Origin: Clostridia bacterium
Lineage (GTDB): Bacteria > Bacillota > Clostridia > Oscillospirales > CAG-272
Assembly: GCA_024404505.1 (NCBI GenBank)
Contig: JAKSPU010000002.1
Span: 3,773 to 67,772, forward strand
Direction of reading: 5' to 3'
DNA: 64,000 nucleotides
The notes under the pieces were generated by a model. That model searched no databases. It had not been told where the DNA came from and saw only the letters and a list, made by a program, of their open reading frames with translations. Made by a program: the position numbers and the translations under genes. Every line of letters begins with the position of its first letter. The first letter of the stretch is position 1. This document shows positions 10,879-57,490 of the stretch, in pieces.

Positions 10879-10895
10879 GGAGCGTAAGAGCGTGT

Positions 10896-11449: not shown

Positions 11450-11478
11450 TTGACAAACCGGCATATTAAGTGTATAAT
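11450..11478 (+). promoter_or_regulatory. Sigma-A-type promoter of rny
   Basis: TTGACA (11450-11455), 17-nt spacer, TATAAT (11473-11478), ~75 nt upstream of the rny ATG. Confidence 0.7.
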
Positions 11479-11553
11479 ATATGATAGCCGTCTGTTTGCC
11501 GGACATTCCGGAAAACGGAAAGGCATACTGCATTTTAAAAAGGAGGTGTATAT

Positions 11554-13107
11554 ATGAGTCCTGTATTAGCAACGATCCTGATCGTGGTTGCTCTGATCCT
11601 CGGCGGCGTGATCGGCGCGCTGATCGGCATGGCCATGCGCAAGAAGTTTGCCGAAGCCGAGATCGGCTCCGCGGAGGAAGAATCCAAGCGGCTGGTCGAT
11701 GAAGGTAAAAAGCAGGCCGAGACCCTGAAAAAGGAAGCCCGGCTCTCCGCTCAGGAAGAGATCATGAAGCTCAAGAGCGATATGGAGCAGGAGATCAAGG
11801 ATCGACGCGCAGAGGTATCCCGCACGGAATCCCGGTTGACCAAAAAGGAAGAAAACCTGGATAAGAAGAGCGAGGCACTCGACAAAAAGGGTGAGCTGCT
11901 CGACAAGAAGATCAAGGATGCCGACGTCGTGAAGGAGCAGGCGGAGGAGGTGCTGGCCAAGCACACCGCCAAGCTGGAGGAGATCTCCGGCTATACCTGC
12001 GAGCAGGCAAAGGCTGAGCTGGTAGCCAATCTTGAGACGGAAGTCCGTCATGAGATGGCACAGCGGCTGGCCGAGCTTGAGGCTGAGTACAAGGAAGCGG
12101 CAGACGAAAAGGCCTGCCACATCATGGCGCTGGCCATTCAGCGCTGTGCCGGTGACTTTGTCGCCGAATCCACCATTTCCTCCGTGGCACTGCCCAGCGA
12201 GGAGATGAAGGGCCGCATCATCGGTCGTGAGGGACGCAATATCCAGAAGCTGGAGACGCTGACCGGCGTGGAACTGATCATTGACGATACGCCCGAGGTC
12301 ATCACCATTTCCGGATTCGATCCCATCCGCCGCGAGGTCGCGAGACTTGCGCTGGAAAAGCTCATTGCCGACGGTCGTATCCATCCCACCCGCATCGAGG
12401 AGATGGTCGAGAAGGCCAAGAAGGACGTGGACGCCGCCATCAAGCAGGCCGGCGAGCGCGCTACCTTCGAGGTCAACATCCACGGCATCAACCCCGATCT
12501 CGTCCGTCTGCTGGGTCGTCTTCGCTACCGCACCAGTTACGGACAGAACGTCCTGCAGCACTCTGTGGAGGTCGCCATTCTGGCCGGCATCATGGCAGAG
12601 GAGCTGGGCGTGGATCCTGTGCTGGCCCGCCGTGCCGGTCTTCTGCATGATATCGGCAAGGCATTCCCCTATGACGTGGAGGGCTCCCACGTACAGATCG
12701 GCGTCAATGCCGCCAAGAAGTACAAGGAGAGCAAGGACGTCATTCATGCCATCGAGGCACACCACGGAGACGTGGAGCCCCAGACCGTCATCGCCGTGCT
12801 GGTCCAGGCCGCCGATGCCATCTCGGCCGCGAGACCCGGCGCCCGCCGCGAGGACATGGAGAACTACATCAAGCGTCTTGAGAAGCTCGAGGAGATCGCC
12901 GAAAGCTATCAGGGCATCGAGAAAGCATTCGCCATTCAGGCCGGCCGTGAGCTGCGCGTGATGGTCAAGCCCGAAGCCGTCAGCGACGAGGACATGGCGC
13001 TCATCGCCCGCGAGATGGCCGAAAAGATCCAGGCAGAGGTCAAGTACCCCGGCCAGATCAAGATCAACCTCATCCGGGAAAGCCGCGCAGTCAGTTACGC
13101 CAAGTAA
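11554..13107 (+). CDS. rny: Ribonuclease Y
   Basis: N-terminal TM helix, long coiled-coil, KH domain ([15 protein letters not shown]) and HD domain (LLHDIGKA...HHGD). RBS is AAGGAGG. Confidence 0.95.
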
Positions 13108-26259: not shown

Positions 26260-27303
26260 TCACTTCGTCCCGATCGTGCAGCTCTCCCCGTCGGAGGCAA
26301 AGCTGACCGTGCCGTCGTAGGTGTAGTAGACGGCGGAGAACACGGCCTTCATCTTGGTCACGATCGCGCCGGCGAGCGACGTTCTGGCGTCGGTGTGGAC
26401 GACGCAGTACCGCGGCTGAAGGACGTCCAGCGCGTTGAGCTCGCCCTTGTCGGCGGACGCACCGTGGTGCGGGATCTTGCACAGCGTCACGGTCGACAGC
26501 CCGCGTGCCTGCCAGAGCGGCATATATTCCGCCATGCGTTCCCCCTCGGCGTCGCCGCAGAACAGCAGCTTCATGCTGCCGAAGGTCATATAGGTGATCA
26601 GGGAGAAATTGTTCTCTTCCGCGTCGACGTTGTCCACGTCGGAGCCCATCTCCCTGCCGCGCTCGTGGCCGGGCAGACCGGTCGCGTTGATCCACAGGTG
26701 CGCGTACCCGAGATCAAGTTCCACGTCCTCGTCATACAGGCGATGCACCTCGGCGGACGAGGCGGCCAGCGCCTCCGCCATCTTGCGGTACAGAGAGGAG
26801 TTGCGGATATAGTCGGGCATATAGACGGTCTTGACGTCGTAGCTGTTCAGCACGCGGGTCGCGGTGCCGATGTGGTCGTTGTCATAGTGCGTGAGGATCA
26901 ATAGGTCGATGACGGAGACGTTCTGCGCGGAAAGCGCGGCCTGAACGGCGGAGAAATCGTCGTTCTCACCGGTGTCCATGAGGATGACCTTGTCGTCCGC
27001 ACGGATCAGGATGCAGTCGGACTTGCCCGTTTTCAGAAAATCGACGTACAGCCGGTGCTCGGCATCCTCATAGGGATCCTCATCAAAGCCTATGGAGGGG
27101 GTCGTCTCGCTTTCCGGCTCCGTGTCCCACGACAGGGGACCGCCCGTGGATGGCTCCCGGGTATCGGCCCCGGGACCGAGGGTCAGCGTGCCGTCCTTGC
27201 CGCTGATCGTACCGTCCGGATTGAGTATCAACCCGGAGCAGGCCGTCAGGGACAACAGCAGCGCGGCCAGCAGAAGGATCGCGGAATATCTGATGCGTTT
27301 CAA
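26260..27303 (-). CDS. MBL-fold metallo-hydrolase lipoprotein (ComEC C-terminal-domain-like)
   Basis: Start assigned to TTG 27303 (RBS AGAGAGG 7 nt upstream), giving MKRIRYSAILLLAALLLSLTAC (lipobox). Metal motif is ILTHYDNDHIG. The longer listed ORF overlaps the upstream gene. Confidence 0.75.
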   Translation of the reverse strand: MKRIRYSAILLLAALLLSLTACSGLILNPDGTISGKDGTLTLGPGADTREPSTGGPLSWDTEPESETTPSIGFDEDPYEDAEHRLYVDFLKTGKSDCILIRADDKVILMDTGENDDFSAVQAALSAQNVSVIDLLILTHYDNDHIGTATRVLNSYDVKTVYMPDYIRNSSLYRKMAEALAASSAEVHRLYDEDVELDLGYAHLWINATGLPGHERGREMGSDVDNVDAEENNFSLITYMTFGSMKLLFCGDAEGERMAEYMPLWQARGLSTVTLCKIPHHGASADKGELNALDVLQPRYCVVHTDARTSLAGAIVTKMKAVFSAVYYTYDGTVSFASDGESCTIGTK

Positions 27304-27319
27304 AGCAGTACCTCTCTTG

Positions 27320-28072
27320 TTACTCCCCGCTCCATTCGGACAGGGCGGTCTTGTCAGCGCCGGACAGCCGGTACGGCTCGCGCTTCTGCAGGTAATCGTA
27401 CACGGGCAGGGCACCGTACGCCTCTCCCTCGTCGTAGTGGACGTCGTTGACGTAGTATACGTCCATGAAGACGTACAGGATCGCGGGATCGCTCATGTCC
27501 ACGCCGTCAAAGACAAAGCGGCGGTAGTTGTACAGGCTTTTTTCCATGCCCGTATGAGACGTCGGCTGCACGCGGACGTATTTTACGCAAGCGGGGTCGT
27601 TGCTCTCGTTGTCGCTCTCGATGTCAGGCGTCAGGTCGTAAGCGATGAGCAGCGTCACGTCGTACAGCTCCTCGGTGCGGTCGGGCAGCTCAGGGAGGCT
27701 GTAATCCTCCGCGAGGTGCCGGATGGTCGAATTATTGTAGCGAAAGATGAGCTGCACCTGATCGCAATCCTCGATGAACAGCGCTCTGGGGCAGGCGAAG
27801 TAGCCCCGGCAGTGGTCGGCGCGCGTGATCGTGTCGAGATCGTTCCAGAAGACGGACAATTCCTTTCCGCTCTCCCCGGCGGTCTGATAGGCGGCAGCCA
27901 GCGCATCGTTCGGTGTGAGCGTGGACATCTCCTTGGGGACCCGTGCCGACAGCAGGCGCCAGAGCAGGATGCCGAAGGTGCCGATGACGAGCGTCAGCAG
28001 GATGCCACGGCCGATCCACCACAGGACGCCATGCTCCTCCTGATCGTATTCATCCTTCGTCATAGTTCTCAT
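27320..28072 (-). CDS. Membrane-anchored protein of unknown function
   Basis: One N-terminal TM helix (WWIGRGILLTLVIGTFGILLW). Start ATG overlaps the ruvX stop (ATGA). No domain recognised. Confidence 0.6.
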   Translation of the reverse strand: MRTMTKDEYDQEEHGVLWWIGRGILLTLVIGTFGILLWRLLSARVPKEMSTLTPNDALAAAYQTAGESGKELSVFWNDLDTITRADHCRGYFACPRALFIEDCDQVQLIFRYNNSTIRHLAEDYSLPELPDRTEELYDVTLLIAYDLTPDIESDNESNDPACVKYVRVQPTSHTGMEKSLYNYRRFVFDGVDMSDPAILYVFMDVYYVNDVHYDEGEAYGALPVYDYLQKREPYRLSGADKTALSEWSGE

Positions 28073-28554
28073 ACGTCGGTACCTCCTTCGATGTCGGGTT
28101 TCAGGAATTTCAGCTTATCCAGCGCGTTCTGCAGGATGATCTCCGCGGACAGCGTGTCGATCACACCCTTGCGTTTCTTGCCGCGCGTGTCCGTCTCGTT
28201 GAGGAAGCGGGAGGCGGCCATGGTCGTCATGCGCTCGTCCAGCATCACTACGGGAATGCTACCCTCCAGATGACGCTCGAGCAGACCCGCGAATTTCTCC
28301 GCGTGCTCGGCACGCGGCCCATGGGAGCCGTCCATATTGACGGGCAGCCCGACGACAACGCCGCATACCTGCCGCTCGCGGGCAACGGCGGCTACGTCCT
28401 CGGCGGTCTTCTGGATGCCGCCGCCGGACACCTGCCCGATGCCGGACGCCAGCGTCCGCGCTTCGTTGGACACGGCAAGGCCGGTCCTCTTGTCGCCGAA
28501 GTCCACGCCGAGGAGCTTTCCCTTGACGGACAGGAGTGTTTTCAGATCGTTCAT
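28069..28554 (-). CDS. ruvX: Holliday junction resolvase-like protein RuvX (YqgF)
   Basis: LLGVDFGDKRTGLAVS and GLPVNMDGSHGPRAE motifs. ATG 28554 preferred (AAGGAG 9 nt upstream). The listed start at 28578 is TTG. Confidence 0.85.
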   Translation of the reverse strand: MNDLKTLLSVKGKLLGVDFGDKRTGLAVSNEARTLASGIGQVSGGGIQKTAEDVAAVARERQVCGVVVGLPVNMDGSHGPRAEHAEKFAGLLERHLEGSIPVVMLDERMTTMAASRFLNETDTRGKKRKGVIDTLSAEIILQNALDKLKFLKPDIEGGTDV

Positions 28555-28574
28555 GTCGTTTTTCTCCTTGGGGA

Positions 28575-28922
28575 TCAATGCTTGCGCCGCGGCTCACGGC
28601 CGCAGGCAGTCAGACGGATGAGCAGTTCCATATTGTCCGGCTGGTCCGGCGCCTCATGCGCCGACCGGCAGCGGCGGATCTCACCGCAGGTCTGGCAACG
28701 GTAGACGATGATGAAGCCCTTCTTGGGGTCCGGCTCGCAGGAGATCGGCTCCAGAGCGCCGCCGCAGGGGTTGGCGCGGTCGCCGGGATTGATATCCACG
28801 TGGCGGGACCACAGGCAGAAGGGGCAGTGGTTGCGCGAGGAGTACCCCAACGGCCTGACCTCTTTCCCGCAGTGGATGCAGACAAAGCCGTCATCGTTTT
28901 TGGCAAATCGTTTCTGTTCCAT
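28575..28922 (-). CDS. RNHCP domain-containing zinc-ribbon protein
   Basis: Literal motif SRNHCPFC plus CIHCG and CQTCG Cys pairs. Start is uncertain, at 28922 or 28958. Confidence 0.7.
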   Translation of the reverse strand: MEQKRFAKNDDGFVCIHCGKEVRPLGYSSRNHCPFCLWSRHVDINPGDRANPCGGALEPISCEPDPKKGFIIVYRCQTCGEIRRCRSAHEAPDQPDNMELLIRLTACGREPRRKH

Positions 28923-28947
28923 AGTTCTTTTATTCTGTGCTTGCTGA

Positions 28948-31122
28948 TTACATTCCATACCCGTTCCGGGCGCGGGGCTTCTGATAGTAGGCTTCGAGGA
29001 TCCGGCAGGAGGTCATCGCCGCGTAGGAGCCGCCTCCGGCGCGCTCGATGACGGAGACGACCACGATGTCGGGATCCCGGGAGGGAGCGCAGCAGACGAA
29101 CAGACCGTTGTCGGTCAGTTTGCCGCCGGTCTGCGCGGTACCGGTCTTGCCCGCGACCGTCACCGGTACGTTCGTGAGGTACCGGGAAATGGAGGCGGTA
29201 TCGGTCACGACCTGCTCCATGCCGGTGATGATCTCGTTCAGGTACACCTGATCGATCTGCATGGAGTCAACTACCGCGGGGGCCTTGACCAGCACGTCCT
29301 GCCGCGTGGTGAAATCGCGGACGCGGGACAAAAGGTGCGCCTCGTAGCGCGTCCCGCCGTTGACGATCGTGGAAATGTACATACCGAGCTGGAGGGGCGT
29401 GAATACGTTCTCGGATTGTCCGATCGCGGCGGCGATGGTGTCGGTCGGCTGCCAATCCACGCCGTGCGACAGCTCACGGTACGCCGGACCGGCCAGAATG
29501 CCCGTGGATTCGGGCAGCTCGATGCCCGTATGCTCCCCGAGCCCGTACAGTTTGCAGTAGCGGTTCATCAGCGTGATGCCGAGCCGGCGGCCCGTCTCGT
29601 AGAAGAAGCAGTTGCAGGATACGCGGACCGCCTCGCGGACCGTGATCGCGCCGTGCTTGTGTACGGCGCTTGTCGTGCTGTTGTAGATCCAGCAGTCGGG
29701 CTGGTAGCTCTGATAGTAGGTGTAAACGCCGTCGCAATCGAGCAGCGTATCCGGCGTCAGGACGCCTTCCGTCATCGCGGCGACGGCTACGCCGGGCTTG
29801 AAGGTCGAGCCGGGCGCGTACTGCCCGGACAGCGCACGGTTGTACAGCGGCAGGGCGTCATTGGCGGCCAGACTGTTGTACTGCTCGTTGAACGTGGATA
29901 GGTCATAGGTCGGATAGGAGGCGATGGCGAGGATCTCGCCCGTTTTGGGGTCTACGGCGACAGCCGCGCCGGACTTGCAGTCCGTGCGGTTGAAGGAGGA
30001 GCGGATATAGTTAACGTTCTCCGCCAGCGCGTTTTCCGCGGCGATCTGAACGTCGATGTCGATGGTCAGGTAGACGTCCTGTCCGGCAACAGGCTCGGTT
30101 TTCCAATACTCGTCCACGATCCTGCCGGATCTGTCCTCGACGATGACGCGGATGCCGTCCTGACCGTGCAGTATGGATTCAAAGGCGGCCTCGACGCCGG
30201 AGATGCCGACCGTGGCGTTCATGTTGTAGCCAAGTTCCTTGTAGGCCGGCCAATCCTCGGCGTAGATAGGTCCGGTCTGACCGAGGATATGCGAGGCATA
30301 GCCGGGGTACGCGTACACGCGCTTGGCAGTCAGGCGGAAGGAGGATCCGGGGACGCCCCACTCGCGGACGCAGGTGATCGTGTCCATGGACACGTCGGAC
30401 GCAAGGATATAGTCGTTCGCCTTGGAGAAGCCGGTGGCGGCCATGCCCCACAGGACGCGGAGCAGGCGGTCGATTTGCTCGTCGGAGAACACGCGCTCCC
30501 CGTCGACTTCGGCTGTCAACTCGTACTTGTCCTCAAAGTAGGCCGTGAGCTGCTGCGCCGTCACGTATTGCAGCGGGTCCGCGTCAAACATCGCTTCGGC
30601 CTTGTCGCGTCCGACGCCCTTGTTGACGCGGATGCGTTTGATCGCCGTGGCCCGCACGCCGGTGCTTTCCAGCACGGCGGCCAGCGTGGCGCGCTCCTTG
30701 GTATCGGGCAACCCGACGCCGACCGAGTACTCAAGGTAGGGGTACACACCCTCAAAGGGATAGCGGTCGTTGCACAGCCTGCCGGCTTCGCCGCGCGAGG
30801 TGACGATGCTGAGCGCGTCGAGAATGGCGCGGTCAAAGGTGATCATATCCTTCGGCATGACGGCGTAGTCGAAGGTCAGGTCGTAGACGTAGCGGTTGGT
30901 GACGATGGGCGTGCCGTTCCGGTCGTAGATCTCACCGCGGACCGCCTGCACGATCTCGGTGCGGGTGGTCGTGCCGTCCTGCTTATGTCCGCGGATATTC
31001 TCACTGTTGAGCTGGAGGACGCCCAGCCGGATGACATAGACAAGGCAGACCAGCAGAAACGCGGCGCCGAGTCCGTACAGACGTATGACGCGCCGCTGCG
31101 CGCTGCGTTTGTTTGCGTCCAT
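28948..31122 (-). CDS. Penicillin-binding protein 2 (class B transpeptidase)
   Basis: N-terminal TM anchor plus STFKP, SCN and KTGTA active-site motifs. RBS is AAGGAGG. Confidence 0.9.
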   Translation of the reverse strand: MDANKRSAQRRVIRLYGLGAAFLLVCLVYVIRLGVLQLNSENIRGHKQDGTTTRTEIVQAVRGEIYDRNGTPIVTNRYVYDLTFDYAVMPKDMITFDRAILDALSIVTSRGEAGRLCNDRYPFEGVYPYLEYSVGVGLPDTKERATLAAVLESTGVRATAIKRIRVNKGVGRDKAEAMFDADPLQYVTAQQLTAYFEDKYELTAEVDGERVFSDEQIDRLLRVLWGMAATGFSKANDYILASDVSMDTITCVREWGVPGSSFRLTAKRVYAYPGYASHILGQTGPIYAEDWPAYKELGYNMNATVGISGVEAAFESILHGQDGIRVIVEDRSGRIVDEYWKTEPVAGQDVYLTIDIDVQIAAENALAENVNYIRSSFNRTDCKSGAAVAVDPKTGEILAIASYPTYDLSTFNEQYNSLAANDALPLYNRALSGQYAPGSTFKPGVAVAAMTEGVLTPDTLLDCDGVYTYYQSYQPDCWIYNSTTSAVHKHGAITVREAVRVSCNCFFYETGRRLGITLMNRYCKLYGLGEHTGIELPESTGILAGPAYRELSHGVDWQPTDTIAAAIGQSENVFTPLQLGMYISTIVNGGTRYEAHLLSRVRDFTTRQDVLVKAPAVVDSMQIDQVYLNEIITGMEQVVTDTASISRYLTNVPVTVAGKTGTAQTGGKLTDNGLFVCCAPSRDPDIVVVSVIERAGGGSYAAMTSCRILEAYYQKPRARNGYGM

Positions 31123-31167
31123 GGCGGGGACCTCCTTTCACGACAGCGGTATCAGGATAGGGATGCG

Positions 31168-32286
31168 TTACATCATGATGAGCGAAAAGACGGTCAGACC
31201 AAGGCAAAGCACGATGAACAGCAGGACACCGGCATTGAGGTACATGACGCTCGCGGTCTCCCCTCTCGTAAGGCTCTGCGTGCCGCGGCTGAGCTTGCGC
31301 TTGCGGAACAGGACGATGGTCAGCACGACGGACGCGATGAGCGCCGCGTATATCATCATGGTGTACAGGAAATAGACCAGCATACCGAGCGGGTTGGCCT
31401 GCAGCAGCTCCATGAGCGTCTCGGGCGATTCAAGCGCCTCCTCGCCGATGAGGGAGATCATCAGCTTGGACAGCACGCCGCCCACGAAGTTCCCGGCTGC
31501 ATGGAGCGATACGGACAGCCAATACTTGCCGGTGCGCGTGTAGACGTAAGCAAGGATCAGACCGATCAGGAAGGTGTAGATCAGCTGGAAGAAATTGCGG
31601 TGGAACAGCGCAAACATGGCGGCGGACAGAAGGATCGCGGCCGTATCGCCGTACTGACGGGTGCGGTCGATGAGCAGCTTGCGGAACATGAATTCCTCGC
31701 CGATCGGCGCGATGACGACCGTAGCAAGGAAGATCAGCCAGAGCGGAGCGTCTGCCGTCATGGATTGCAGGATATCGGCATAATCCTTGCCGGTGATGGC
31801 GGACAGCAGGTTCATGAGTCCGTTGCTGATCAGGCTGCCGATATACAGGTATCCGACGCAGATGATGAACAGCACGATCCACCAGCCGAAGTGGAAGCGG
31901 GGCTTTTTGACCTCGACACCGCGGAACGGGTAGGTCTCGTTGTGCGGGGCGGCGGGAATGGCCTTCAGGATGAGCAGCATACAAGGCAGGGCAATGGCGT
32001 ACAGGGGAACGAGGGACAGCGCCCAATCGAACCACCACGTCGTGAGCAGCTCGGGCTTGAGAAGAAGGGCAAGGTAGGAGAAGCCGTATCCGCAGGCGGT
32101 GAAAAGCACCGCGAGCAGGGAGAAGCCGAGTCCCACGCGGGTCATGTACGCGCGGTGCGCGGACAGGGGCAGCTTGGGGAAAACAGGCTCGGCTTGGGCC
32201 GATGTCTCGACGGTCTCCGGCGTTTCGGCCAGGTAGTAGACGGAGCTGTCCTGCTTTTCGGGATTTTCAGGCTCGTAAGGATTCAT
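31168..32286 (-). CDS. CPBP family intramembrane glutamic endopeptidase (CAAX-protease-like)
   Basis: Motifs GEEFMFR, FALFH and HAAGNF in a multi-pass membrane protein. RBS is AAGGAG. Confidence 0.85.
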   Translation of the reverse strand: MNPYEPENPEKQDSSVYYLAETPETVETSAQAEPVFPKLPLSAHRAYMTRVGLGFSLLAVLFTACGYGFSYLALLLKPELLTTWWFDWALSLVPLYAIALPCMLLILKAIPAAPHNETYPFRGVEVKKPRFHFGWWIVLFIICVGYLYIGSLISNGLMNLLSAITGKDYADILQSMTADAPLWLIFLATVVIAPIGEEFMFRKLLIDRTRQYGDTAAILLSAAMFALFHRNFFQLIYTFLIGLILAYVYTRTGKYWLSVSLHAAGNFVGGVLSKLMISLIGEEALESPETLMELLQANPLGMLVYFLYTMMIYAALIASVVLTIVLFRKRKLSRGTQSLTRGETASVMYLNAGVLLFIVLCLGLTVFSLIMM

Positions 32287-32318
32287 GATATACTCCTTTC
32301 AGATGCGGGGACGGCGGA

Positions 32319-33344
32319 TCAGAAGAGTCTGCCGAGCAGGCGGCCGGACAGATTCAACTCTCCGCCCCAGAGAGAGGGCGTGCGGATGATGCGGTTGAGG
32401 CCGTTGATCACGCAGTCCAGCGGGTCCTTCGCCACGGTGACGCGCAGACCCGTGCAGCGGCTGATGGCAGCCGCCATGCCGGGGATCACGGCGCACCCGC
32501 CGGTGAGCATGAGGCCGTAGTTATGGATGTCGGCGGAGATCTCAGGCTGGACGCCCTCCAGCGTGAGCAGCGCGATGCGGGCTATGTTTTCGATGGACGG
32601 TGTGATCGCCTCACAGATCTCCCGCGAGCTGACGTTGAGCGCCGCGGCCAGTCCCTCGTCGGATTTCAAGCCGCAGACGGTCATGCTGCCGCGGTCGAGG
32701 CGGGGATCGGCGGAGCCGATCTTCACTTTGAGTGCCTCCCCCGCGGAGTCTGAAATGCGGAGGTGGCGGCGGTTGAGCATATAACTGACGATGGCGACGT
32801 CCAGCCGTTCGCCTGCCATGCGGGCGCTGAGTGCGTTGACGATGCCGCAGGAGCTGATGACGGCTGCCTCGGTGATGCCGCCGCCGATGTTGAGGACCAT
32901 GCAGCCCTGCGGCGACGTGACCCGCAGCCCGGCCCCGACCGCGGCGGCAAAGATCGCGGGGACCTGCGGCACGTCGCGGGCGCCGGCCTCCAGCACGGCG
33001 TTTTCCGCGGCCAGCTTCTCGACCTCGGTGATGCGGTACGGAGTGGCAAGCAGCACGACGGGCTTGTAGAAGGTGGAGCGCAGCTTCTTCTGCGTGAAGT
33101 ACGAATCCAGCATGAGCGCCGTGACCTCAAAGTCGGAGACGACGCCGTCCTTGATCGGCCGGTAAGCCAGAATGCCCTCGGACGTTTTGCCTATCATCCG
33201 GCGGGCCTCGGCGCCCACGGCGATCACCTCGTGGGTCTGGCTGTCAATGGCAGCCGCCGACGGACGGCGCAGGATCACGCCCTCCTCGGGCGTACAGATC
33301 CGGGTATACGCGGTCCCCAGATCAAGACCGATACAACGAGCCAC
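32319..33344 (-). CDS. mreB: Rod shape-determining protein MreB
   Basis: Actin-fold start IGLDLGTAYTRI. GTG 33344 chosen (6 nt after GGAGG) because the listed TTG 33350 abuts the RBS. Confidence 0.9.
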   Translation of the reverse strand: MARCIGLDLGTAYTRICTPEEGVILRRPSAAAIDSQTHEVIAVGAEARRMIGKTSEGILAYRPIKDGVVSDFEVTALMLDSYFTQKKLRSTFYKPVVLLATPYRITEVEKLAAENAVLEAGARDVPQVPAIFAAAVGAGLRVTSPQGCMVLNIGGGITEAAVISSCGIVNALSARMAGERLDVAIVSYMLNRRHLRISDSAGEALKVKIGSADPRLDRGSMTVCGLKSDEGLAAALNVSSREICEAITPSIENIARIALLTLEGVQPEISADIHNYGLMLTGGCAVIPGMAAAISRCTGLRVTVAKDPLDCVINGLNRIIRTPSLWGGELNLSGRLLGRLF

Positions 33345-33389
33345 GGGCAACCTCCTTTCCCGGCTGTGGGCCGGAATGTCGATGCGGAT

Positions 33390-33974
33390 TTATAACATGA
33401 TGCCGAATTCCTGCCTGATCGTGGTCAGCAGCCTGTGCACGGGCAGACCGACGACGTTGAAGTAGTCGCCGCGGATGCCGACGATATACCGGGATGCCTG
33501 CCCCTGAATGGCGTATCCGCCGGCTTTCCCGAAGGGCTCGCCGGTGGCGACGTAGGATTCGATCTCCTCCTCGGTCATGGGGGCGAATTCCACCTCGGTG
33601 ATCTCGGCAGAGGTCACCATGCGGCCCCGGTACCAGACCGCGACACCGGAGGAAACGGTGTGCGTGGTCCCGGCCAGCGCCCGGATCATGCGGACGGCGT
33701 CCTCGCGGTCGGCGGGCTTGCCGAGGAACTGCCCGTTCAGCACGACCAGCGTATCGGACGCGAGGATCATGGTGTCGTTGTCCAGCGTTCCCTCGGACGC
33801 CATGACGTCCCGGACCGCCGCGCACTTGCGCGCGGCAATGGCGGACACGCGTCCGGCGGGGTCTGTGAGGTCACAGGTCTCGTCGGCCTCGGAGGTGCGG
33901 ACGGTGAAGGGGATATCGAGAGCCGACAGAATCTCCCGGCGGCGCGGGGACCCGGAGGCAAGGATGAGTTTCAT
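33390..33974 (-). CDS. maf: Maf-like nucleoside triphosphate pyrophosphatase (septum formation protein)
   Basis: MKLILASGSPRRREIL signature; 194 aa. Confidence 0.9.
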   Translation of the reverse strand: MKLILASGSPRRREILSALDIPFTVRTSEADETCDLTDPAGRVSAIAARKCAAVRDVMASEGTLDNDTMILASDTLVVLNGQFLGKPADREDAVRMIRALAGTTHTVSSGVAVWYRGRMVTSAEITEVEFAPMTEEEIESYVATGEPFGKAGGYAIQGQASRYIVGIRGDYFNVVGLPVHRLLTTIRQEFGIML

Positions 33975-34028
33975 AGCGGCAAGTCCTCCCGGGGCAACAC
34001 CGATACTGCCCCATTATCAGAATACTAT

Positions 34029-34057
34029 ATTATATCATAAAATCCGCCCCGTGGCAA
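34029..34057 (-). promoter_or_regulatory. Sigma-A-type promoter of the maf-mreB operon
   Basis: Minus strand reads TTGCCA, 17-nt spacer, TGa-TATAAT. Confidence 0.6.
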
Positions 34058-34181
34058 GGGCTTTTTCCGTTTTTTCACACGTTTCCGAAAAAGTTACACT
34101 TGGCGCACGGGCGGGCGGGCATCCTGCTCCCCGGTGCTGCGGACGTTTCCGGCGTTTCCGCGCCAAACACAGCGGCGATCA

Positions 34182-34210
34182 TTGACAAACACACCGGCGT
34201 ATGCTATAAT
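34182..34210 (+). promoter_or_regulatory. Sigma-A-type promoter of rarA
   Basis: TTGACA, 17-nt spacer, TGc-TATAAT, ~50 nt upstream of the ATG. Confidence 0.7.
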
Positions 34211-34261
34211 GGATGTATCCCCGTAATGTCCGGAAAACGCCACTTTCAATAGGAGGCACAC

Positions 34262-35491
34262 ATGGTACAATCACCCTTGGCGGACGCGATCCGACCGAAG
34301 AATATGAACGAGATCGTCGGCCAGCAGCACCTGTTCGGTCCGTCCGGTGTCCTGCGCCGCATGGTCGAGGCGGGACGCGTCACGAATATGATCTTTTTCG
34401 GCCCGCCCGGGACCGGCAAGACGACCGCCGCGTCTGTCATCGCGGCCATGTCGGGCATGACCTTCCGCAAGCTGAACGCCACGACTGCGTCCCTGCAGGA
34501 TGTGAAGGATATTCTGTCCGAGACGGAGGGGATGTTCGGCACGAACGGGATCCTGCTCTACCTTGACGAGATCCAGTATTTCAATCGCAAGCAGCAGCAA
34601 TCCCTGCTGGAGTACATGGAGGACGGCCGCATCACGCTGATCGCGTCCACGACCGAGAATCCGCATTTTTACGTCTACAACGCCATCATATCGCGGTCTT
34701 CGCTGTTCGAGTTCAAGCCGGTCGCGCCGCGGGACGTGCTGATCTCTTTGAACCGCGCGCTGGCATGGCTGAACGAGCAGGGCGGGACGTCCACGGTCCT
34801 GCCGGAGAAGGTCGGTCTTGCGCTGGCCGAGGGGGCGGGCGGTGACGTCCGCCGGGCGGTCGGTCTGCTGGAGAACGCCTACTACGCCACGGGCTTCGAG
34901 CCGGATGCCGTGATCACGCTCGAGTGTGTTTCCGCCTTTGACGCCGGTGTCGGCAACTTCAGCGATGACGTCCACTACGATCTGCTCGGGTGTCTGCAGA
35001 AGTCCATCCGCGGCTCGGATCCGGATGCCGCCGCCTTCTATGTTGCCAAGATGCTCGCGCTCGGTGAGATGTTCTCGCTTTGCCGCCGTCTGCAGGTCAT
35101 TGCATCCGAGGATATCGGGCTGGCCTACCCGCAGGCTGCCGCGATCGTCCGCGCCTGCTGCGAGTCCGCGCGGGAGCTGGGGATGCCGGAGGCGCAGATC
35201 CCGCTGATCCACGCGGCTATGCTGCTCGCCACGTCGCCGAAGTCCAACTCCGCTTACAACGCCCTGCACGCGGCCATGGCCGACGTCGAGGCCGGGCGCG
35301 GTGCCCGCATCCCGGAGCATCTGCAAAGCCCTTTGTTCAAGGGCTACAAGTACCCCCACGACTACGAAAATCACTGGGTCGACCAGCAGTACCTGCCCGA
35401 CGACCTCAAGGACCGCACTTACTACGTCCCCGGCCCCAACAAGACCGAGCAGGCCGCCGCGGCGTATTGGGATGCAATAAAAAAGAAATAG
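34262..35491 (+). CDS. rarA: Replication-associated recombination protein A (AAA+ ATPase)
   Basis: Walker A FFGPPGTGKTT, Walker B LYLDEIQ, and a MgsA C-terminal domain (HLQSPLFKGYKYPHDY). Confidence 0.92.
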   Translation: MVQSPLADAIRPKNMNEIVGQQHLFGPSGVLRRMVEAGRVTNMIFFGPPGTGKTTAASVIAAMSGMTFRKLNATTASLQDVKDILSETEGMFGTNGILLYLDEIQYFNRKQQQSLLEYMEDGRITLIASTTENPHFYVYNAIISRSSLFEFKPVAPRDVLISLNRALAWLNEQGGTSTVLPEKVGLALAEGAGGDVRRAVGLLENAYYATGFEPDAVITLECVSAFDAGVGNFSDDVHYDLLGCLQKSIRGSDPDAAAFYVAKMLALGEMFSLCRRLQVIASEDIGLAYPQAAAIVRACCESARELGMPEAQIPLIHAAMLLATSPKSNSAYNALHAAMADVEAGRGARIPEHLQSPLFKGYKYPHDYENHWVDQQYLPDDLKDRTYYVPGPNKTEQAAAAYWDAIKKK

Positions 35492-44349: not shown

Positions 44350-44898
44350 ATGGCCGATATCCTGCAGGACCGGGAGATCATCTGTCTTCTGGAAGCACGT
44401 GACGAGACCGCGGTCAGGGAACTGCAGCGCAAGTACGAGCGATATTGCCTGACGGTGGCGATGAATATCCTGCACAACGCGGCTGACGCGGAGGAATGCG
44501 TCAACGACGTTTATCTCAAGACGTGGAACAGCATCCCGCCCGCCCACCCGACCTCGCTTCGCCTGTTTCTCGCCAAGCTGACCCGCAACACGGCACTTGA
44601 CCGCTATCGGGTGCGCAGACGGCGCGGGTCGGACTTTGAGGTCGCGCTGGAGGAGCTGGAAAGCGTTCTCGCGGTACCTGAGGAGGACGCGGACGAGCTT
44701 CCGGACCTTGTCAACGAGTTTCTGGACGGACTTCCGTCGACGGAACGCACGACCTTCCTGCTTCGCTACTGGCACGCGATGCCGGTCGCGGACATCGCCC
44801 GCCGGGGCGGGTGGACGATCAATGCCGTATCCGTGCGATTGTATAAGACCCGCGAAAAGCTGCGGGCGTTTCTTGCCGAGAGGGGGTATCATGTATGA
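44350..44898 (+). CDS. ECF-type sigma-70 family sigma factor (copy 2, paralog of 13452-14018)
   Basis: DAEECVNDVYLKTWNSIPP, versus NDTYLKTWNSIPP in copy 1. Region 4 is VADIARRGGWTINAVSVRLYKTREKL. It has the same ...GY.V-stop / ATG overlap. Confidence 0.85.
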   Translation: MADILQDREIICLLEARDETAVRELQRKYERYCLTVAMNILHNAADAEECVNDVYLKTWNSIPPAHPTSLRLFLAKLTRNTALDRYRVRRRRGSDFEVALEELESVLAVPEEDADELPDLVNEFLDGLPSTERTTFLLRYWHAMPVADIARRGGWTINAVSVRLYKTREKLRAFLAERGYHV

Positions 44899-46496
44899 GC
44901 AAGAAAAATGTGACAGGCCTTGAGGCCTTCAAAAAGCTGGAGAACATCGACAACCGTTACCTGACCGAGGCGGATTCCTTCATCTCCCTGACGGAGAGCG
45001 AGGCTGAGCCGGTCGCCGAAAAGCGTTCCCTGCGTGACAGATTTGCCTTTACCCAGACCGGCTGGTTCGCAGCCGCCGCCAGCGCCGTGGTCGCGCTGGC
45101 TGCCGTCGTCTTCATCGTCCGTGCCGGAGACGGCCCGAATACCGTCCGTCGGCCCGAACACGGATTCACGCCCGCGTCCAACGTGGGTGAGAGCGTCAAC
45201 GCCGTCAGCGAGGACGAGACCGTTCTGACCGCCGAGCTGCCCGAGGACGTATGCAGCGGCATTTACGCCTACGGTAAAAACGACAAATATTGGAATGACC
45301 TGACCGACGAGGAACAGGCGCAGGCCCGGAAGGTCCACGTCAAGCAGGACTGCCATATCTATTCCGGCGTCGGCGGGTTCTGCGTCGTCTGCGGGGTCGC
45401 GGATGATCCGCATATCCACGTCTACAACGAAAGCACCGGCACGTGCTTGATCTGCGGTCTGGTGGATACGGCAACGGATGCCCTCCGCAGCCGCCCGGAC
45501 GGCTGGGAAGGATTGTCTGACGTAGAAAAAGCCGCAATCCAAGCGGAACTCGCGTCGATTGGGAATGATGCCCTTGATCCTCGCGCCCAACACAAGATAG
45601 CGGCCAAGGAAGAGTGGCGGAAAAACCACCCGCAGGAAGCCGAAACCACCGTCACCAGAACATGGGACGACCTGACCGACGAGGAAAAGGCGCAGATCGA
45701 GGAGATCCTTCGCAATCAGCACCTCCACGTCTACGACAAGAACGGCGGTGCGTGCATCATCTGCGGTCAGAAGGACGGCTCTTATGAGATGCTCAGGGAG
45801 CATCTGCCCTGCAATCACCGCATGACAGCCGAGGAACAGGAGAAGGCAGCCCTCATCGCCGCCTATCTCGACGATCTGGGCATCGCTTACGGGTACGTCG
45901 CATACAACGACGAGGGCATTGTGGTCACGACGCCCAAGGGCGCTTACCCCGATACGCACTACGGACGCAGCCAGCTGGAGCTACAGGGGGACCGCATCGC
46001 AGCCGCGCTTGTGGGCAAGAATATGCCTGTCAAGGAGATGGCATGGTGGATATTCAATGAGAATGAGTACGGATTCCTGTCTATGCAGACGTGTCACTCC
46101 GGCGAATTCATCGCACCGCCCATCACACACAACGCATACCGCGAGTGGACGGACGAGGAGCTGCTTGCCGTCGTGAGCGGCGTCTTTGATGACGAGCTCG
46201 CCGACGGCTGGAGCGTCCGCTTCGCGCAGATGGAGGATAAGGAGTGGCTCAGCATCTGCTTTGAGATCGACGAGACCATGACGGTCGACGGCGACCGGCT
46301 GTCCCTTCTCATGAACGAAGTGTGGCGCAGGATGGACAAGAGCGTGGCCATGATCTCCGTCTACTTCAACTATCCCGGTGACACCGACACCCGTGCCGAC
46401 TTCTTCATTGACTACATCAACACCTATGCCGGGTGCGGCACCAATGGAAAGAACATCGGCGGCTGGAGCCAGCCTTCCATACCGACGTACGAGTAA
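44895..46496 (+). CDS. Single-pass membrane protein, putative anti-sigma factor (copy 2) with Cys-containing ectodomain motifs
   Basis: ATGA overlap with the sigma gene and a TM helix (WFAAAASAVVALAAVVFIV). Three H(I/V)Y...G.C..CG motifs and two W.DLTDEE.AQ motifs lie in the ectodomain. Confidence 0.6.
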   Translation: MSKKNVTGLEAFKKLENIDNRYLTEADSFISLTESEAEPVAEKRSLRDRFAFTQTGWFAAAASAVVALAAVVFIVRAGDGPNTVRRPEHGFTPASNVGESVNAVSEDETVLTAELPEDVCSGIYAYGKNDKYWNDLTDEEQAQARKVHVKQDCHIYSGVGGFCVVCGVADDPHIHVYNESTGTCLICGLVDTATDALRSRPDGWEGLSDVEKAAIQAELASIGNDALDPRAQHKIAAKEEWRKNHPQEAETTVTRTWDDLTDEEKAQIEEILRNQHLHVYDKNGGACIICGQKDGSYEMLREHLPCNHRMTAEEQEKAALIAAYLDDLGIAYGYVAYNDEGIVVTTPKGAYPDTHYGRSQLELQGDRIAAALVGKNMPVKEMAWWIFNENEYGFLSMQTCHSGEFIAPPITHNAYREWTDEELLAVVSGVFDDELADGWSVRFAQMEDKEWLSICFEIDETMTVDGDRLSLLMNEVWRRMDKSVAMISVYFNYPGDTDTRADFFIDYINTYAGCGTNGKNIGGWSQPSIPTYE

Positions 46497-54028: not shown

Positions 54029-54057
54029 TTGACAAACAAACGACAAAAGTGTATAAT
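54029..54057 (+). promoter_or_regulatory. Sigma-A-type promoter of the large LRR lipoprotein gene
   Basis: TTGACA, 17-nt spacer, TATAAT. Two further TTGAC hexamers lie just upstream (54001, 54018). Confidence 0.7.
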
Positions 54058-54093
54058 AAAGTATAAGAACTGACATTTCCCGGAGGTGAATAT

Positions 54094-57000
54094 ATGAACA
54101 AAATGAAAGGATTGTTCGGACTGCTGCTTCTCCTTGCGGTCATACTCCTGACCCTGACCGCCTGCCACATCGAGAAGCGTCCGACCGTGATCACCGACCC
54201 GCCCGCCGACACCGCGCCGGAGCCGACTGATACCGAGCCTGCCACCGGGGCAGAGCCGGAACCGGACACAAAGCACGTTCACGTATACGGCGCATGGACG
54301 GAGCAGGTGGCGCCCACCTGCACGCAGCACGGCACCGAGATCCGCGTCTGTGCCTGCGGAGAAACCGAGACCCGCCCCGTGGACCCGAAGGGACACATCG
54401 AAGTCATCATGGAGGCGGTTGCCCCCACCTGCTCGTCTGTCGGTCTGACGGAGGGCAGACATTGCTCCGAGTGCGGCGAGGTTTTCTCGGAGCAGGAGGA
54501 GATCCCCATGCTGCCGCATACTGAGGTCACCGACTCCGCCGCCGCGCCGACCTGCACCGAGACCGGTCTGACCGAGGGCAGCCACTGTTCCGTCTGCAGC
54601 GCCGTGATCGTGCCACAGGAGACCGTTGCCGCGCTCGGGCATACTGAGGAAACGGACCTTGCCGTCGCGCCGACCTGTACTGAGACCGGTCTGACCGAGG
54701 GACGCCATTGCACAGTCTGCGGATCCGTGACCGTTCCGCAGGAGACCGTGGAGGCGCTCGGACACCAAGAGGTCGAGGACGCGGCGATCGCGCCTACCTG
54801 CACAGAGGTCGGCTGGACCGCGGGCAGCCACTGCGCCGTCTGCAACGCCGTATTCATCGTGCCGTCTGAGATCCCCGCTATGGGCCACACGCCCGTGACG
54901 GATCCCGCCGTTACGCCTACCTGCACCCGGAACGGCAAGACCAAGGGCAGCCACTGCGCTGTCTGCCGTGAAGTCCTCAAGGCGCAGGAGCCCATTTACG
55001 CCAAGGGACATCAGCCTGTGACCGATCCCGCCGTCGAGCCTACCTGCACCGAGTCCGGCTGGACCATGGGCACTCACTGCTCCGTCTGTCAGGCTGTCCT
55101 CGACGCTCCGACAGAGATCGCTCCGCTCGGCCATAAGCCCGTGACCGATCCGGCCGTTCGGCCTACCTGCACCGACACCGGTCTGACGGAGGGCAGCCAC
55201 TGCTCCGTGTGCCATGCCGTGGTCGTGAAGCAGCAGGTCATCGCTCCGCTCGGACACACTCTCGTCGTCGATCCCCGCGTCGAGCCGGGCTGCGTGGAGC
55301 CCGGTCTGACCGAAGGACAGCATTGTATCCTCTGCGGCGCCGTCGTGACGCCTCAGGAGGTGATCGAGCCGCTGGACCACCACATCGTCATCGATCCCGC
55401 CGTCGAGCCGACCTGCACGGAGCCCGGCTACACCGAAGGCACACACTGCGAACGATGTGATATCATCTTCATTCTGCAAAAAGAGATCCCCGCACTCGGC
55501 CACGTCGTGATCACGCAGCCCGCTGTTGAGGTCACCTGTACCACGGACGGCATCACCGAGGGCAGATACTGCCGCCGGTGTGGATTCGTGCTGGCCGAAC
55601 AGGTCGTTCTCCCGGCTCCGGGACACGATATCGTGAACGAGCCGGCTGTCGAGCCGACCTGCGTCACGGACGGTAAGACCAAAGGCTCGTACTGCTCCGT
55701 CTGCAACGAGCGTTTCCTTGAGCAGAAAACGATCAAGGCGCTCGGACATGACTTCGATTGGTATGTCTGCAGCCGCTGCGGTCTGGATCGGACGTCTCAG
55801 GGGCTGATATTCACCTCGAACGGTGACGGCACCTGCTCCGTCAGCGGCTGCGGCTCCTGCACCGATCAGACCGTAATCATCCCGGCCAAGTCTCCCGCGG
55901 GAGACAAGGTGACGGGCATCGCGGCCGGTGCCTTCAACTATAAGGATACCTCCCTCAGCCCGCGCTCCCTGCTGATCCCGCCCACCGTGACGTCCATCGG
56001 CAGCGACGCCTTCAAGGGCTGCCCGCTCCTGACCTCCGTGTCCATTCCGGACAGCGTGAAGTACGTCGGAGAGGACGCGTTCACGGGCTGCACGGCACTC
56101 AAGCTGACCACCTACGATAACGCCTGCTACATCGGCAACGAGGAGAACCCGTACCGCGTGCTGCTCTCCTGCACAAACAAGAACGCAGCCTCCAGCATCA
56201 TCCATCCCGAGACCGAGATCATCGCAAGCGGTGCGTACGACAAGTGCGTCAATCTGTTCACCATCACGATCCCTGCGCGCGTGTCCTGCATCAACGAGTT
56301 TGCCTTCAAGGATTGCACCGGTCTGGTCGGGATCTCCGTCAGCACCGGCAACCCCACGTACTACAGCCGGAACAACTGCGTGATCCGCTACGACGACGGT
56401 ACGCTCGTGCTGGGCTGCAGCCGCTCCGTCATCCCCAACGACCGCAGCGTCACCGCCATCGGTCCCGGCGCGTTCTATGGCTGCACGGGATTGACGAGCA
56501 TCGTTATCCCGGAGGTCGTCAAGCGCATCGATCACGATGCGTTCTACGGCTGCAAGTGGTTGAAGAGCATCACGCTGCCTGAAAGCCTGATTGAAATTGG
56601 AGAAAACGCCTTCTACGGCTGCGGAGAACTGAGAAAGCTCCTGATCCCGGATAACGTGACCAAGATCGGTCCGTATGCGTTCGCTTTCTGCTCCATCATG
56701 CTTGAGGTCAAGCTGCCCGAAAGCCTGACGACGATCCCGGAGTACCTGTTCTACAGCTGCTACAAGCTGCCTTCCGTCACGGTCCCGTCCCGCGTGACCG
56801 AGATCGGCGAGTATGCCTTCTTCTCATGCCGCGGTCTTGAAACAGTCAATCTCCCCGAGAGCCTGAAGACGATCGGCGAGTCTGCGTTCGGCTACTGCTC
56901 CGCGCTCAAGTCGATCACGGTGCCTGCCGGCGTGACGCGGTATGAAAACTATCTCTTCCGCGGTTGTGCCGTGCTGACCGATATCACCCTCGCCGATACC

Positions 57001-57276
57001 GTGACGTCCATCGGTAATTACACCTTCTCCGGGTGCAACAAGCTGAAGACGATCACCCTGTCCGAAAACCTGACGTCCATCGGCAACAACGCCTTTGCCG
57101 GCTGTTACGATCTGAATAAGATCGTCATTCCTGCCGGCGTGACCAAGATCGGCGCGTCTGCCTTCTCCGGCTGCGGCAAGCTGACCATCAATTGCCGCGT
57201 TTCCTCCAAGCCCGCCGCATGGGATACCAAATGGAACGTGTCCCTCTGCCCGGTGATTTGGAACTATGCGGGATGA
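54094..57276 (+). CDS. Large surface lipoprotein: Cys/His repeat array plus BspA-type LRR domain
   Basis: Lipobox LTLTAC and a Pro/Thr/Glu linker. A 41-aa repeat array covers aa 100-550, followed by ~480 aa of LRR units (IP..V..IG..AF..C..L). Confidence 0.85.
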   Translation: MNKMKGLFGLLLLLAVILLTLTACHIEKRPTVITDPPADTAPEPTDTEPATGAEPEPDTKHVHVYGAWTEQVAPTCTQHGTEIRVCACGETETRPVDPKGHIEVIMEAVAPTCSSVGLTEGRHCSECGEVFSEQEEIPMLPHTEVTDSAAAPTCTETGLTEGSHCSVCSAVIVPQETVAALGHTEETDLAVAPTCTETGLTEGRHCTVCGSVTVPQETVEALGHQEVEDAAIAPTCTEVGWTAGSHCAVCNAVFIVPSEIPAMGHTPVTDPAVTPTCTRNGKTKGSHCAVCREVLKAQEPIYAKGHQPVTDPAVEPTCTESGWTMGTHCSVCQAVLDAPTEIAPLGHKPVTDPAVRPTCTDTGLTEGSHCSVCHAVVVKQQVIAPLGHTLVVDPRVEPGCVEPGLTEGQHCILCGAVVTPQEVIEPLDHHIVIDPAVEPTCTEPGYTEGTHCERCDIIFILQKEIPALGHVVITQPAVEVTCTTDGITEGRYCRRCGFVLAEQVVLPAPGHDIVNEPAVEPTCVTDGKTKGSYCSVCNERFLEQKTIKALGHDFDWYVCSRCGLDRTSQGLIFTSNGDGTCSVSGCGSCTDQTVIIPAKSPAGDKVTGIAAGAFNYKDTSLSPRSLLIPPTVTSIGSDAFKGCPLLTSVSIPDSVKYVGEDAFTGCTALKLTTYDNACYIGNEENPYRVLLSCTNKNAASSIIHPETEIIASGAYDKCVNLFTITIPARVSCINEFAFKDCTGLVGISVSTGNPTYYSRNNCVIRYDDGTLVLGCSRSVIPNDRSVTAIGPGAFYGCTGLTSIVIPEVVKRIDHDAFYGCKWLKSITLPESLIEIGENAFYGCGELRKLLIPDNVTKIGPYAFAFCSIMLEVKLPESLTTIPEYLFYSCYKLPSVTVPSRVTEIGEYAFFSCRGLETVNLPESLKTIGESAFGYCSALKSITVPAGVTRYENYLFRGCAVLTDITLADTVTSIGNYTFSGCNKLKTITLSENLTSIGNNAFAGCYDLNKIVIPAGVTKIGASAFSGCGKLTINCRVSSKPAAWDTKWNVSLCPVIWNYAG
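54391..55743 (+). repeat. 11 tandem in-frame 123-bp (41-aa) repeats
   Basis: Each unit reads GH.(P)V.D.AV.PTCTE.G.TEG.HC.VC..V....E.I..L. Degenerate half-units flank the array (aa 61-99 and 551-575). Confidence 0.9.
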
Positions 57277-57459: not shown

Positions 57460-57490
57460 GGTGGGTGCCGTCACAGGTGCCCACCCTTTT
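57460..57490 (+). terminator. Intrinsic terminator (shared repeat module) after the LRR gene
   Basis: GGTGGGTGCC-GTCACA-GGTGCCCACC followed by CTTTT. Confidence 0.75.

Follow-up and report, generated by a model that had tools for sequence, protein, structure and literature searches.

Two papers published in 2025 describe, from models and small-angle X-ray scattering (SAXS), domains of the M64 immunoglobulin A (IgA) protease of Thomasclavelia ramosa (UniProt Q9AES2) as a new rod-like metal fold, and both treat this fold as peculiar to that protease (PMC12237041, PMC12415215). According to the first paper, ZBD1 (residues 879-1008) consists of three subdomains and ZBD2 (residues 1101-1171) of two, each being a three-stranded antiparallel sheet of 34-56 amino acids (aa); ZBD1 measures ~110 Å per three subdomains, and putative tetrahedral His/Cys zinc sites lie at the subdomain interfaces, mostly of the His2Cys2 type and in one case Cys3His (PMC12237041). 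The second paper names the same domains CTD2 and CTD4, reports isolated CTD2 to be a fully extended rod by SAXS, and proposes a periscope role (PMC12415215). The accessible portions of both papers contain no metal analysis of these domains, no survey of their distribution and no description of tandem arrays (PMC12237041, PMC12415215). Here, we analyzed a 64,000-nucleotide (nt) stretch of a Clostridia bacterium genome (contig JAKSPU010000002.1; hereafter the window, whose numbering is used for all coordinates without a contig name), in which the gene at 54094..57276 encodes a 1060-aa surface lipoprotein with an array of tandem 41-aa Cys/His units between its lipid anchor and a BspA-type leucine-rich repeat (LRR) head. 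On profile comparison, this 41-aa repeat is homologous to the ZBD1/ZBD2 (CTD2/CTD4) 'metal-associated periscope domains' of the protease, at about residues 884-1008 and 1101-1171 in UniProt numbering, and the array, to judge from its sequence, represents a regular tandem form of the protease-type, putatively zinc-linked rod fold, with predicted His-Cys3 sites. Taken as a whole, we consider it probable that the array consists of metal-stapled β-sheet modules forming a stiff stalk for the LRR head.

The gene and the parts of its product are as follows:

54094..57276, + strand: whole gene, 1060-aa surface lipoprotein with signal, linker, putative zinc-clasp stalk and LRR head
54094..54165, + strand: lipoprotein signal peptide, aa 1-24, lipobox L-T-A-C24
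54166..54273, + strand: Pro/Thr/Glu/Asp-rich linker, aa 25-60, read from sequence
54274..54390, + strand: variant first unit, aa 61-99, with an H61-V-H63 start, lone Cys76 and a C86-A-C88 knuckle
54391..55743, + strand: eleven 41-aa units, aa 100-550, consensus G-H-x11-C-x10-(H)-C-x2-C, modelled as three-stranded antiparallel sheets
55744..55782, + strand: cap GHDFDWYVCSRCG, aa 551-563, with a His and a CxxC knuckle and without a lone Cys
55783..57273, + strand: Cys-containing N-cap (..NGDGTCSVSGCGSCTD..VIIP..) and BspA-type LRR head, Pfam PF13306 LRR_5

Cutting the protein every 41 aa from Gly100 yields eleven units with an exact 123-nt period, as the initial annotation of this locus had read, and with zero indels, and Tandem Repeats Finder recovered the period of 123 independently over parts of the array. 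The degenerate copies which that annotation had seen on both sides are also present, upstream as HVHVYGAW..APTC..RVCAC (aa 61-99) and downstream as the cap. Its description of the unit, with a G-H opening, three Cys and two His, holds in part: His2, Cys14, Gly18, Thr20, Cys25 and Cys28 are invariant in all units here, so that the three Cys and the first His stand, whereas unit 2 opens with Pro and unit 9 with Asp at position 1, and position 24, the second His just before Cys25, is His in 9 of the 11 units and Tyr in units 10 and 11. Its layout, in which the stalk separates the lipid anchor from a BspA-type LRR head, was borne out as well. The signal peptide, read from the sequence, has a K-rich n-region and a hydrophobic core (N-terminus MNKMKGLFGLLLLLAVILLTLTA-C24), the lipobox pattern [LVI][ASTVI][GAS]C ends at Cys24 when read by eye, and the head matches PF13306 in four stretches over aa ~600-1060 (E 2.2e-97; 322 bits against a cut-off of 27.7), with partial, sub-cut-off NCBIfam matches to the LRR adhesin HupY/LrrG. 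Likeness to BspA-type LRR surface proteins is limited to this C-terminal head, a clear LRR_5 member, and does not extend to the repeat. The observation made in the initial annotation is thus confirmed, and its interpretation is supported in part, as detailed below.

Pfam and NCBIfam scans of the whole protein, of single units and of unit pairs returned no model covering the repeat, and its peptide strings retrieved zero papers in a full-text literature search. Weak or cumulative matches to zinc-ribbon families, EGF_LMN_ATRN (laminin-type EGF), Kazal_1 and assorted domains of unknown function (DUFs) were discarded, none of them being above its per-domain threshold. Against PDB sequences, the unit profile (A3) gave two borderline matches, one of them, to Kazal inhibitors, being taken up below; the other covers residues 854-884 of 9qa6_A, the T. 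ramosa IgA protease (E 4.7e-4), a segment (HNLTLVAAKAATCTTAGNSAYYTCDGCDKWF) that carries the identical H-x11-C-x10-C-x2-C spacing. Variant units of 52 aa occur alongside 41-aa units in the arrays of homologues, and a profile built from 14 of these variants (A4) matches residues 854-906 of the same chain over its full length with E 1.3e-17. In hhalign the two profiles align to each other (97.8% probability, E 1e-12) and are set apart by an insertion of 10 residues that follows the third strand; a three-unit piece of the homologue P0026 aligns to residues 853-972 of 9qa6_A (E 0.0055). The earlier statement that the repeat belongs to no named domain therefore stands for Pfam and NCBIfam, but the protease domains provide a precedent for it.

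The locus differs from this closest relative in regularity and in layout. The protease has only 3+2 irregular subdomains of 34-56 aa with mostly His2Cys2 putative sites, placed C-terminal to the enzyme near a sortase anchor (PMC12237041, PMC12415215), whereas here 11 regular 41-aa units and two end pieces with predicted His-Cys3 sites lie N-terminal, adjoining the lipid anchor, with an LRR head at their far end.

The conservation of the unit was tabulated over 1,301 distinct units cut from 120 homologous proteins. Cys25 and Cys28 are each conserved in 100% of these units, His2 in 95%, Gly18 in 91% and Cys14 in 89%, with a further 8% in which Cys14 is displaced by one residue in a shorter unit type. 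His24 is retained in 68% and is otherwise Lys, Thr or Tyr, with the other ligands kept. This pattern points to His2, Cys14, Cys25 and Cys28, and not His24, as the putative ligands. The conserved set then comprises one His and three Cys, so the odd Cys count is no puzzle, since four ligands make one tetrahedral site.

AlphaFold2 models of the repeat are confident and all-β. A three-unit model (alignment of 68 three-unit segments) reached a mean pLDDT of 97.0 and a pTM of 0.65, and a single-unit model (98 aligned units) reached a pLDDT of 95.1 with strands as in the three-unit model. In each unit DSSP assigns residues 4-7, 10, 18-19, 22-25, 31-33 and 37-38 to strands and none to helix. The three-stranded antiparallel up-and-down sheet is thus modelled in every unit here, and with the sequence homology it constitutes the likeness to the protease domains. 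Neither model had a significant match when searched with Foldseek against the PDB. The three-unit model gave the SasG/Aap G5-E rods as its top matches (best E 0.15, TM-scores <0.3, non-significant), and NrdR and ribosomal zinc ribbons are among those of the single unit (E of 3 or worse, non-significant). This lack of a significant match agrees with both protease papers, PDBeFold having found no structural relative of the CTD2/CTD4 fold according to the second paper (PMC12237041, PMC12415215).

These listed matches deserve comparison. The zinc ribbons and knuckles (NrdR N-terminus, ribosomal eL43, TFIIS C-terminal domain) share with the unit a CxxC knuckle at a β-hairpin turn, but a classical zinc ribbon has two knuckles per domain, while each unit here has a single knuckle together with a His and a lone Cys that are 11-12 residues apart, and the predicted site most likely bridges two modules instead of lying within one domain. 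Given one knuckle per unit, no Pfam family above its per-domain threshold and no significant fold match, a classical zinc ribbon was rejected. SasG/Aap repeats are single-layer β-sheets without a hydrophobic core (PMC8201768, PMC9704523, PMC8286594); in Aap, zinc drives dimerisation via pliable Cys-free sites, whereas intrachain stapling is proposed here. More broadly, the stalks of periscope and fibrillar adhesins (Sgo_0707 SHIRT; SasG/Aap G5-E) have no sequence relation and no significant fold relation to the repeat.

The models also bear on a likeness to Kazal-type serine-protease inhibitors, of which the array might be a string. The units share with these inhibitors the motif P-x-C-x3-G-x-T-x4-C-x2-C, the unit profile matches the PDB entry 1bus with E 3.9e-4, and there are sub-cut-off matches to Pfam Kazal_1. 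A Kazal domain has six Cys in three disulfides and an α-helix following the C-x2-C, and this helix holds the last two matched Cys. The units have three Cys and a conserved His, they are modelled all-β with no helix at a pLDDT of 95-97, and no Kazal structure is present among the top 50 fold-search matches listed in either search. Considering the Cys number, the conserved His and the all-β model, we rejected the Kazal match as a chance motif, and we regard an inhibitor string as barely credible.

The position of the metal site within the array was then argued from DSSP strings and sequence. The β1-β2 antiparallel ladder fits i+j=29 (4-7 with 25-22; 10 with 19) and the β2-β3 antiparallel ladder fits i+j=56 (23-25 with 33-31; 18-19 with 38-37). 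In the model, Cys14 would lie at the tip of the long β1-β2 hairpin, about ten strand residues from the knuckle of its own unit, and Cys25-x2-Cys28 would form the β2-β3 turn at the opposite end, beside His2 (2+27=29). The chain after β3 would run back along residues 17-13, so that the His2 of the next unit adjoins Cys14 (43+13=56). By this register, the coherent cluster brings together Cys14 from unit n and three residues from unit n+1, namely His2, Cys25 and Cys28, which suggests that each site joins the lone Cys of one unit to the His and knuckle of the following one. The initial annotation had proposed a Cys3His site per bead that crosses the unit boundary, and this is still the best reading, but the phase it gave, with the three Cys of one unit and the His of the next, conflicts with the strand register and was rejected.

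The sequences at the ends of the array agree with this placement. An H-x-H start is seen in the first unit here (H61-V-H63) and in many others, among them those of the 34-unit and 2-unit paralogues described below (contigs C1 and C208) and of the homologues P0007, P0057 and P0073; since no preceding unit can donate a Cys, the first unit would form a His2Cys2 site. The array terminates here as GH-x7-C-x2-C with no lone Cys. The first-unit and cap features are both present in the paralogues on C1 and C52, and C208 and C57 carry related variants. The cap would complete the last site with Cys523, the Cys14 of unit 11, and once it is counted each of the 12 lone Cys and each of the 13 His-plus-knuckle pieces would belong to a site.

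A second line of evidence comes from units that have lost the lone Cys. Among 1,762 distinct pairs of consecutive units, the unit following one without the lone Cys starts with H-x-H in 7 of 17 cases, compared with 11 of 1,745 when the Cys is present (Fisher p 6e-11, a value that is overstated because several of the 17 cases come from related proteins). An H-x-H start within the same unit is not linked to the missing Cys in this set (0/17 versus 41/1,745). The first unit, the cap and this compensation fit an inter-unit model and not an intra-unit site. A site built from His2, Cys14, Cys25 and Cys28 of a single unit was rejected for two reasons: the register separates Cys14 from the knuckle, and the compensation for a missing Cys falls in the next unit. 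From the register, the array-end sequences and the compensation we infer an inter-unit site, as both protease papers describe (PMC12237041, PMC12415215).

The same observations bear on the alternative that disulfides or free thiols, and not metal, stabilise the units, with the odd Cys pairing across units or staying reactive. This would suit an extracellular protein with three Cys per unit, disulfides being the usual stabiliser of small Cys-rich modules. Nevertheless, one His is as conserved as the Cys (95%), an H-x-H start replaces the missing Cys of a neighbour, which is the behaviour of a ligand set and not of a disulfide pair, and Cys25-x2-Cys28 at a β-turn is a classic zinc knuckle. The hosts, which we take to be strict gut anaerobes, also speak against disulfides. 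Finally, no disulfides were seen among the 24 Cys of the homologous IgA protease, which required a reducing agent for monodispersity (PMC12237041). We therefore consider stabilisation by disulfides or free thiols improbable.

Metal stapling of the modules, which we favor, would work as follows. Small extracellular β-sheet modules would be joined end to end by structural metal sites, the predicted metal most likely being Zn(II) held by one His and three Cys. Each unit would be a three-stranded up-and-down sheet (strands at ~residues 4-10, 18-25 and 31-38), in which the zinc knuckle Cys25-x2-Cys28 sits beside His2 and the lone Cys14 reaches the start of the following unit. The first unit would supply a second His (H61-x-H63) and the cap would accept the last lone Cys, giving 13 sites in series. 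Together, the modules would make up a long stiff rod, a 'periscope' stalk, carrying the BspA-type LRR head from the lipid anchor in the cytoplasmic membrane through the cell wall to the surface. An extended end-to-end rod is what the ladder register and the SAXS of the homologue would predict. The repeat, its conservation, its homology to the protease domains, the confident all-β model, the paralogue architectures and the size of the family are established here, whereas metal binding, the residues of each site, the stiffness of the rod and its role as a spacer are inferred. Taking ~3.7 nm per homologous IgA-protease unit and 13 pieces, the stalk would be roughly 45 nm long, which we estimate to be about the thickness of a Gram-positive wall plus surface layers. 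With a lipid anchor in the membrane and a binding head beyond the wall, a rigid spacer is the simplest reading.

Several points weigh against this proposal. The metal content of the repeat is so far predicted only, and the sites of the protease are called putative in both papers, the first of them adding 'pending experimental validation' (PMC12237041, PMC12415215). The strand-register argument derives from DSSP strings alone, the pTM of the three-unit model leaves room for bending between units, and the compensation cases share the relatedness noted above. Some arrays, such as those in cohesin proteins ending ..PALGFTVSG, end without a cap, which would leave a lone Cys unpaired. A role as spacer is also compatible with binding by the units themselves. 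In addition, the proposal assigns no part to the 68%-conserved His24, for which a second-shell contact, an alternative ligand and a pH sensor are all conceivable roles.

We also searched the window's own assembly (2.95 Mb, 229 contigs) for further copies of the module, and found 59 unit matches across five reading frames. Three paralogues share a common plan of lipobox, acidic linker, n units, cap, '..SNGDGTC..' N-cap and LRR_5 head:

contig C1, ~27300-34270, - strand: paralogue with 34 units, lipobox, acidic linker, stalk and LRR_5 head
contig C52, ~360-2860, - strand: paralogue with 14 units, lipobox, acidic linker, stalk and LRR_5 head
contig C208, ~10350-12240, + strand: paralogue with 2 units, lipobox, acidic linker, stalk and LRR_5 head

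Their lipoboxes (LSSC, LASC and LSAC) lie at the corresponding position, the acidic TEPxTEP linker is likewise present, and their first units start with H-x-H except for a single His in C52. With 12 units here against 2, 14 and 34 in these paralogues and up to 66 in one protein of the database, the earlier suggestion that stalk length varies among related proteins proved correct. The C1 protein has further LRR blocks, each after an '..EFTSNGDGTC..' N-cap, one of which is preceded by another single unit and cap. On contig C57, a 1715-aa frame carries a single unit and cap (HVHNAQAVADLAATCTKDGYTGRTFCAVCNS..GHTFELVDGVLKCACGE; unit at aa ~1093-1133), which joins an N-terminal enzyme-like region to long C-terminal repeats resembling cell-wall-binding repeats; from this architecture, the module also serves singly as a connector.

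Beyond this genome, a profile search against 1.84 billion representative proteins, clustered at 50% identity, found the module in 31,366 clusters at E <= 1e-3, 20,186 at E <= 1e-10 and 7,262 at E <= 1e-30, the largest array being the 66 units mentioned above. Within the class, 29 of 300 sampled genomes (~10%) and 22 of 178 genera have the module. Of 251 genomes sampled across the phylum, only 3 matched at E <= 1e-8, namely the genome itself, one of the same class and one from outside the class. The source names of the homologues point to metagenome-assembled genomes (MAGs) of Clostridia and Oscillospiraceae. Elsewhere, the partner domains before or after the module include cohesin, dockerin, SLH, fn3, Big_2, Flg_new and LRR_5.

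These architectures are relevant to the possibility that the units bind host glycans, proteins or other cells in their own right, which would make the array a multivalent adhesin and not merely a passive spacer. The module occurs with a wide variety of heads, and there are proteins that consist almost wholly of it. Surface positions vary strongly, the units of this protein being only 43-56% identical to unit 1, and additional functions of the homologous domain are left open in PMC12415215. Against this, apart from the ligand residues conservation is seen only at a few structural residues (Gly, Thr and Pro), with no conserved surface patch apparent, and a location between anchor and head, as in the four paralogues, is where a spacer would be expected. 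Moreover, PMC12237041 reports the ZBD domains to be dispensable for substrate cleavage by the IgA protease. On balance, we regard an adhesive array as unlikely, although it is the alternative to which we give most weight.

For the protein as a whole, no ortholog was found in 40 relatives, in genome contigs or in metagenome contigs, and the exact protein, with either of two alternative starts, had no match in the protein collection. The relatives of the LRR head are at best 48% identical in the protein database and 49% over part of the domain among relatives. LRR_5 proteins are very numerous in the same-genus relatives (G301-G324), with up to ~50 matching stretches per genome and no close ortholog of this head among them (<=49% identity). 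The sequences suggest that LRR heads turn over fast.

At the DNA level, the units are more divergent than had been supposed. The initial annotation had considered the repeats similar enough to be prone to recombination and assembly collapse, but the pairwise DNA identity has a mean of 59% and a maximum of 79% (units 2 and 3), and the longest common exact stretch spans 20 nt. At third codon positions the identity is 49%, compared with 61-66% at the first two positions, and adjacent units are 44-76% identical in protein. The array here is old and offers little for slippage, recombination or assembly collapse to act on. In relatives, adjacent units have a median identity of 73%; pairs with >=90% identity make up 15% of all adjacent pairs and occur in 71 of 123 proteins. 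These near-identical neighbours indicate that the family grows by recent tandem duplication. It should be noted that the general plan of a Periscope Protein, with anchor, tandem repeats and distal functional domain, is found here in the lipobox Cys24, the 13 pieces and the LRR_5 head. Periscope Proteins sensu Whelan et al. (2021) combine highly identical DNA repeats with strain length variation, and the mean DNA identity of the present array falls short of the former.

The gene stands alone, with an M42-type peptidase gene on one side and argH on the other, both on the opposite strand. It has the following expression signals, whose presence we count in favor of a stalk-bearing surface protein:

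54029..54057, + strand: promoter TTGACA-17-TATAAT, consensus matched 12/12
54082-54089, + strand: ribosome-binding site GGAGGTGA, with the ATG at 54094
57460..57485, + strand: terminator-like hairpin 3' of the gene

The surroundings also bear on whether the array might be a metal store, a scavenger or a redox wire on the cell surface, whose many Cys3His sites would bind Zn or Fe to serve uptake, buffering or electron transfer and not structure. Potential sites number 13 here, one relative has up to 66 units, and the profile of 52-aa variant units weakly matches rubredoxins (E ~0.08-0.2). On the other hand, no metal transporter neighbours the gene, whose flanks are an M42-type peptidase and argH/argG, and at ~3.7 nm apart the sites would be too distant for efficient electron hopping. 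A Cys3His site with full coordination holds its metal tightly and is slow to exchange it, a behaviour better matched to structure than to trafficking. This argument for structural sites is also made in PMC12415215. A role in metal storage or electron transfer thus seems to us very unlikely.

Two further features of the window touch on Cys outside the array. The junction between cap and LRR head (aa 564-602, window 55783-55900) holds extra Cys (..NGDGTCSVSGCGSCTD..), two of which are kept in the paralogues (GDGTC..G.CTD); a disulfide and a further metal site with the cap are both conceivable. In addition, a putative anti-sigma protein encoded at 44895-46496 (+ strand) contains three short motifs, CHIYSGVGGFCVVCG, HIHVYNESTGTCLICG and HLHVYDKNGGACIICG, two of which start with H-x-H; in all three, C-x2-C-G follows (I/V)-Y at a distance of 5-6 residues. 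They look like the H-x-H opening of the array's first unit fused to its cap (GHDFDWYVCSRCG) and may be stand-alone His2Cys2 mini-knuckles; the unit profiles did not detect them (E > 0.1).

The module is thus a very common, unnamed repeat, for which the sole descriptions we found are the two papers on one IgA protease (PMC12237041, PMC12415215). In gut Clostridia it supports LRR adhesin-like heads, cohesin/dockerin scaffolds, SLH proteins and enzymes, and with a named model, large surface proteins now listed as 'hypothetical' could be annotated by the thousands in Clostridia of the gut and rumen. Being regular, the 41-aa array is also a cleaner object than the irregular protease domains for questions about zinc and the inter-unit clasp. 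If the metal-stapled stalk is true, it would be a distinct route to an extracellular rod whose rigidity needs neither disulfides nor a hydrophobic core. More tentatively, and with the odds in our view against it in this full form, the array could be the canonical form of a large unnamed family of 'zinc-clasp' rods (at least 20,000 clusters, in gut Clostridia), in which every junction is closed by a metal site that two units share and stiffness and reach depend on the supply of zinc and the oxidation of thiols. If so, zinc withholding by the host or exposure to oxygen would affect how these anaerobes display adhesins, cohesins and enzymes on their surface.

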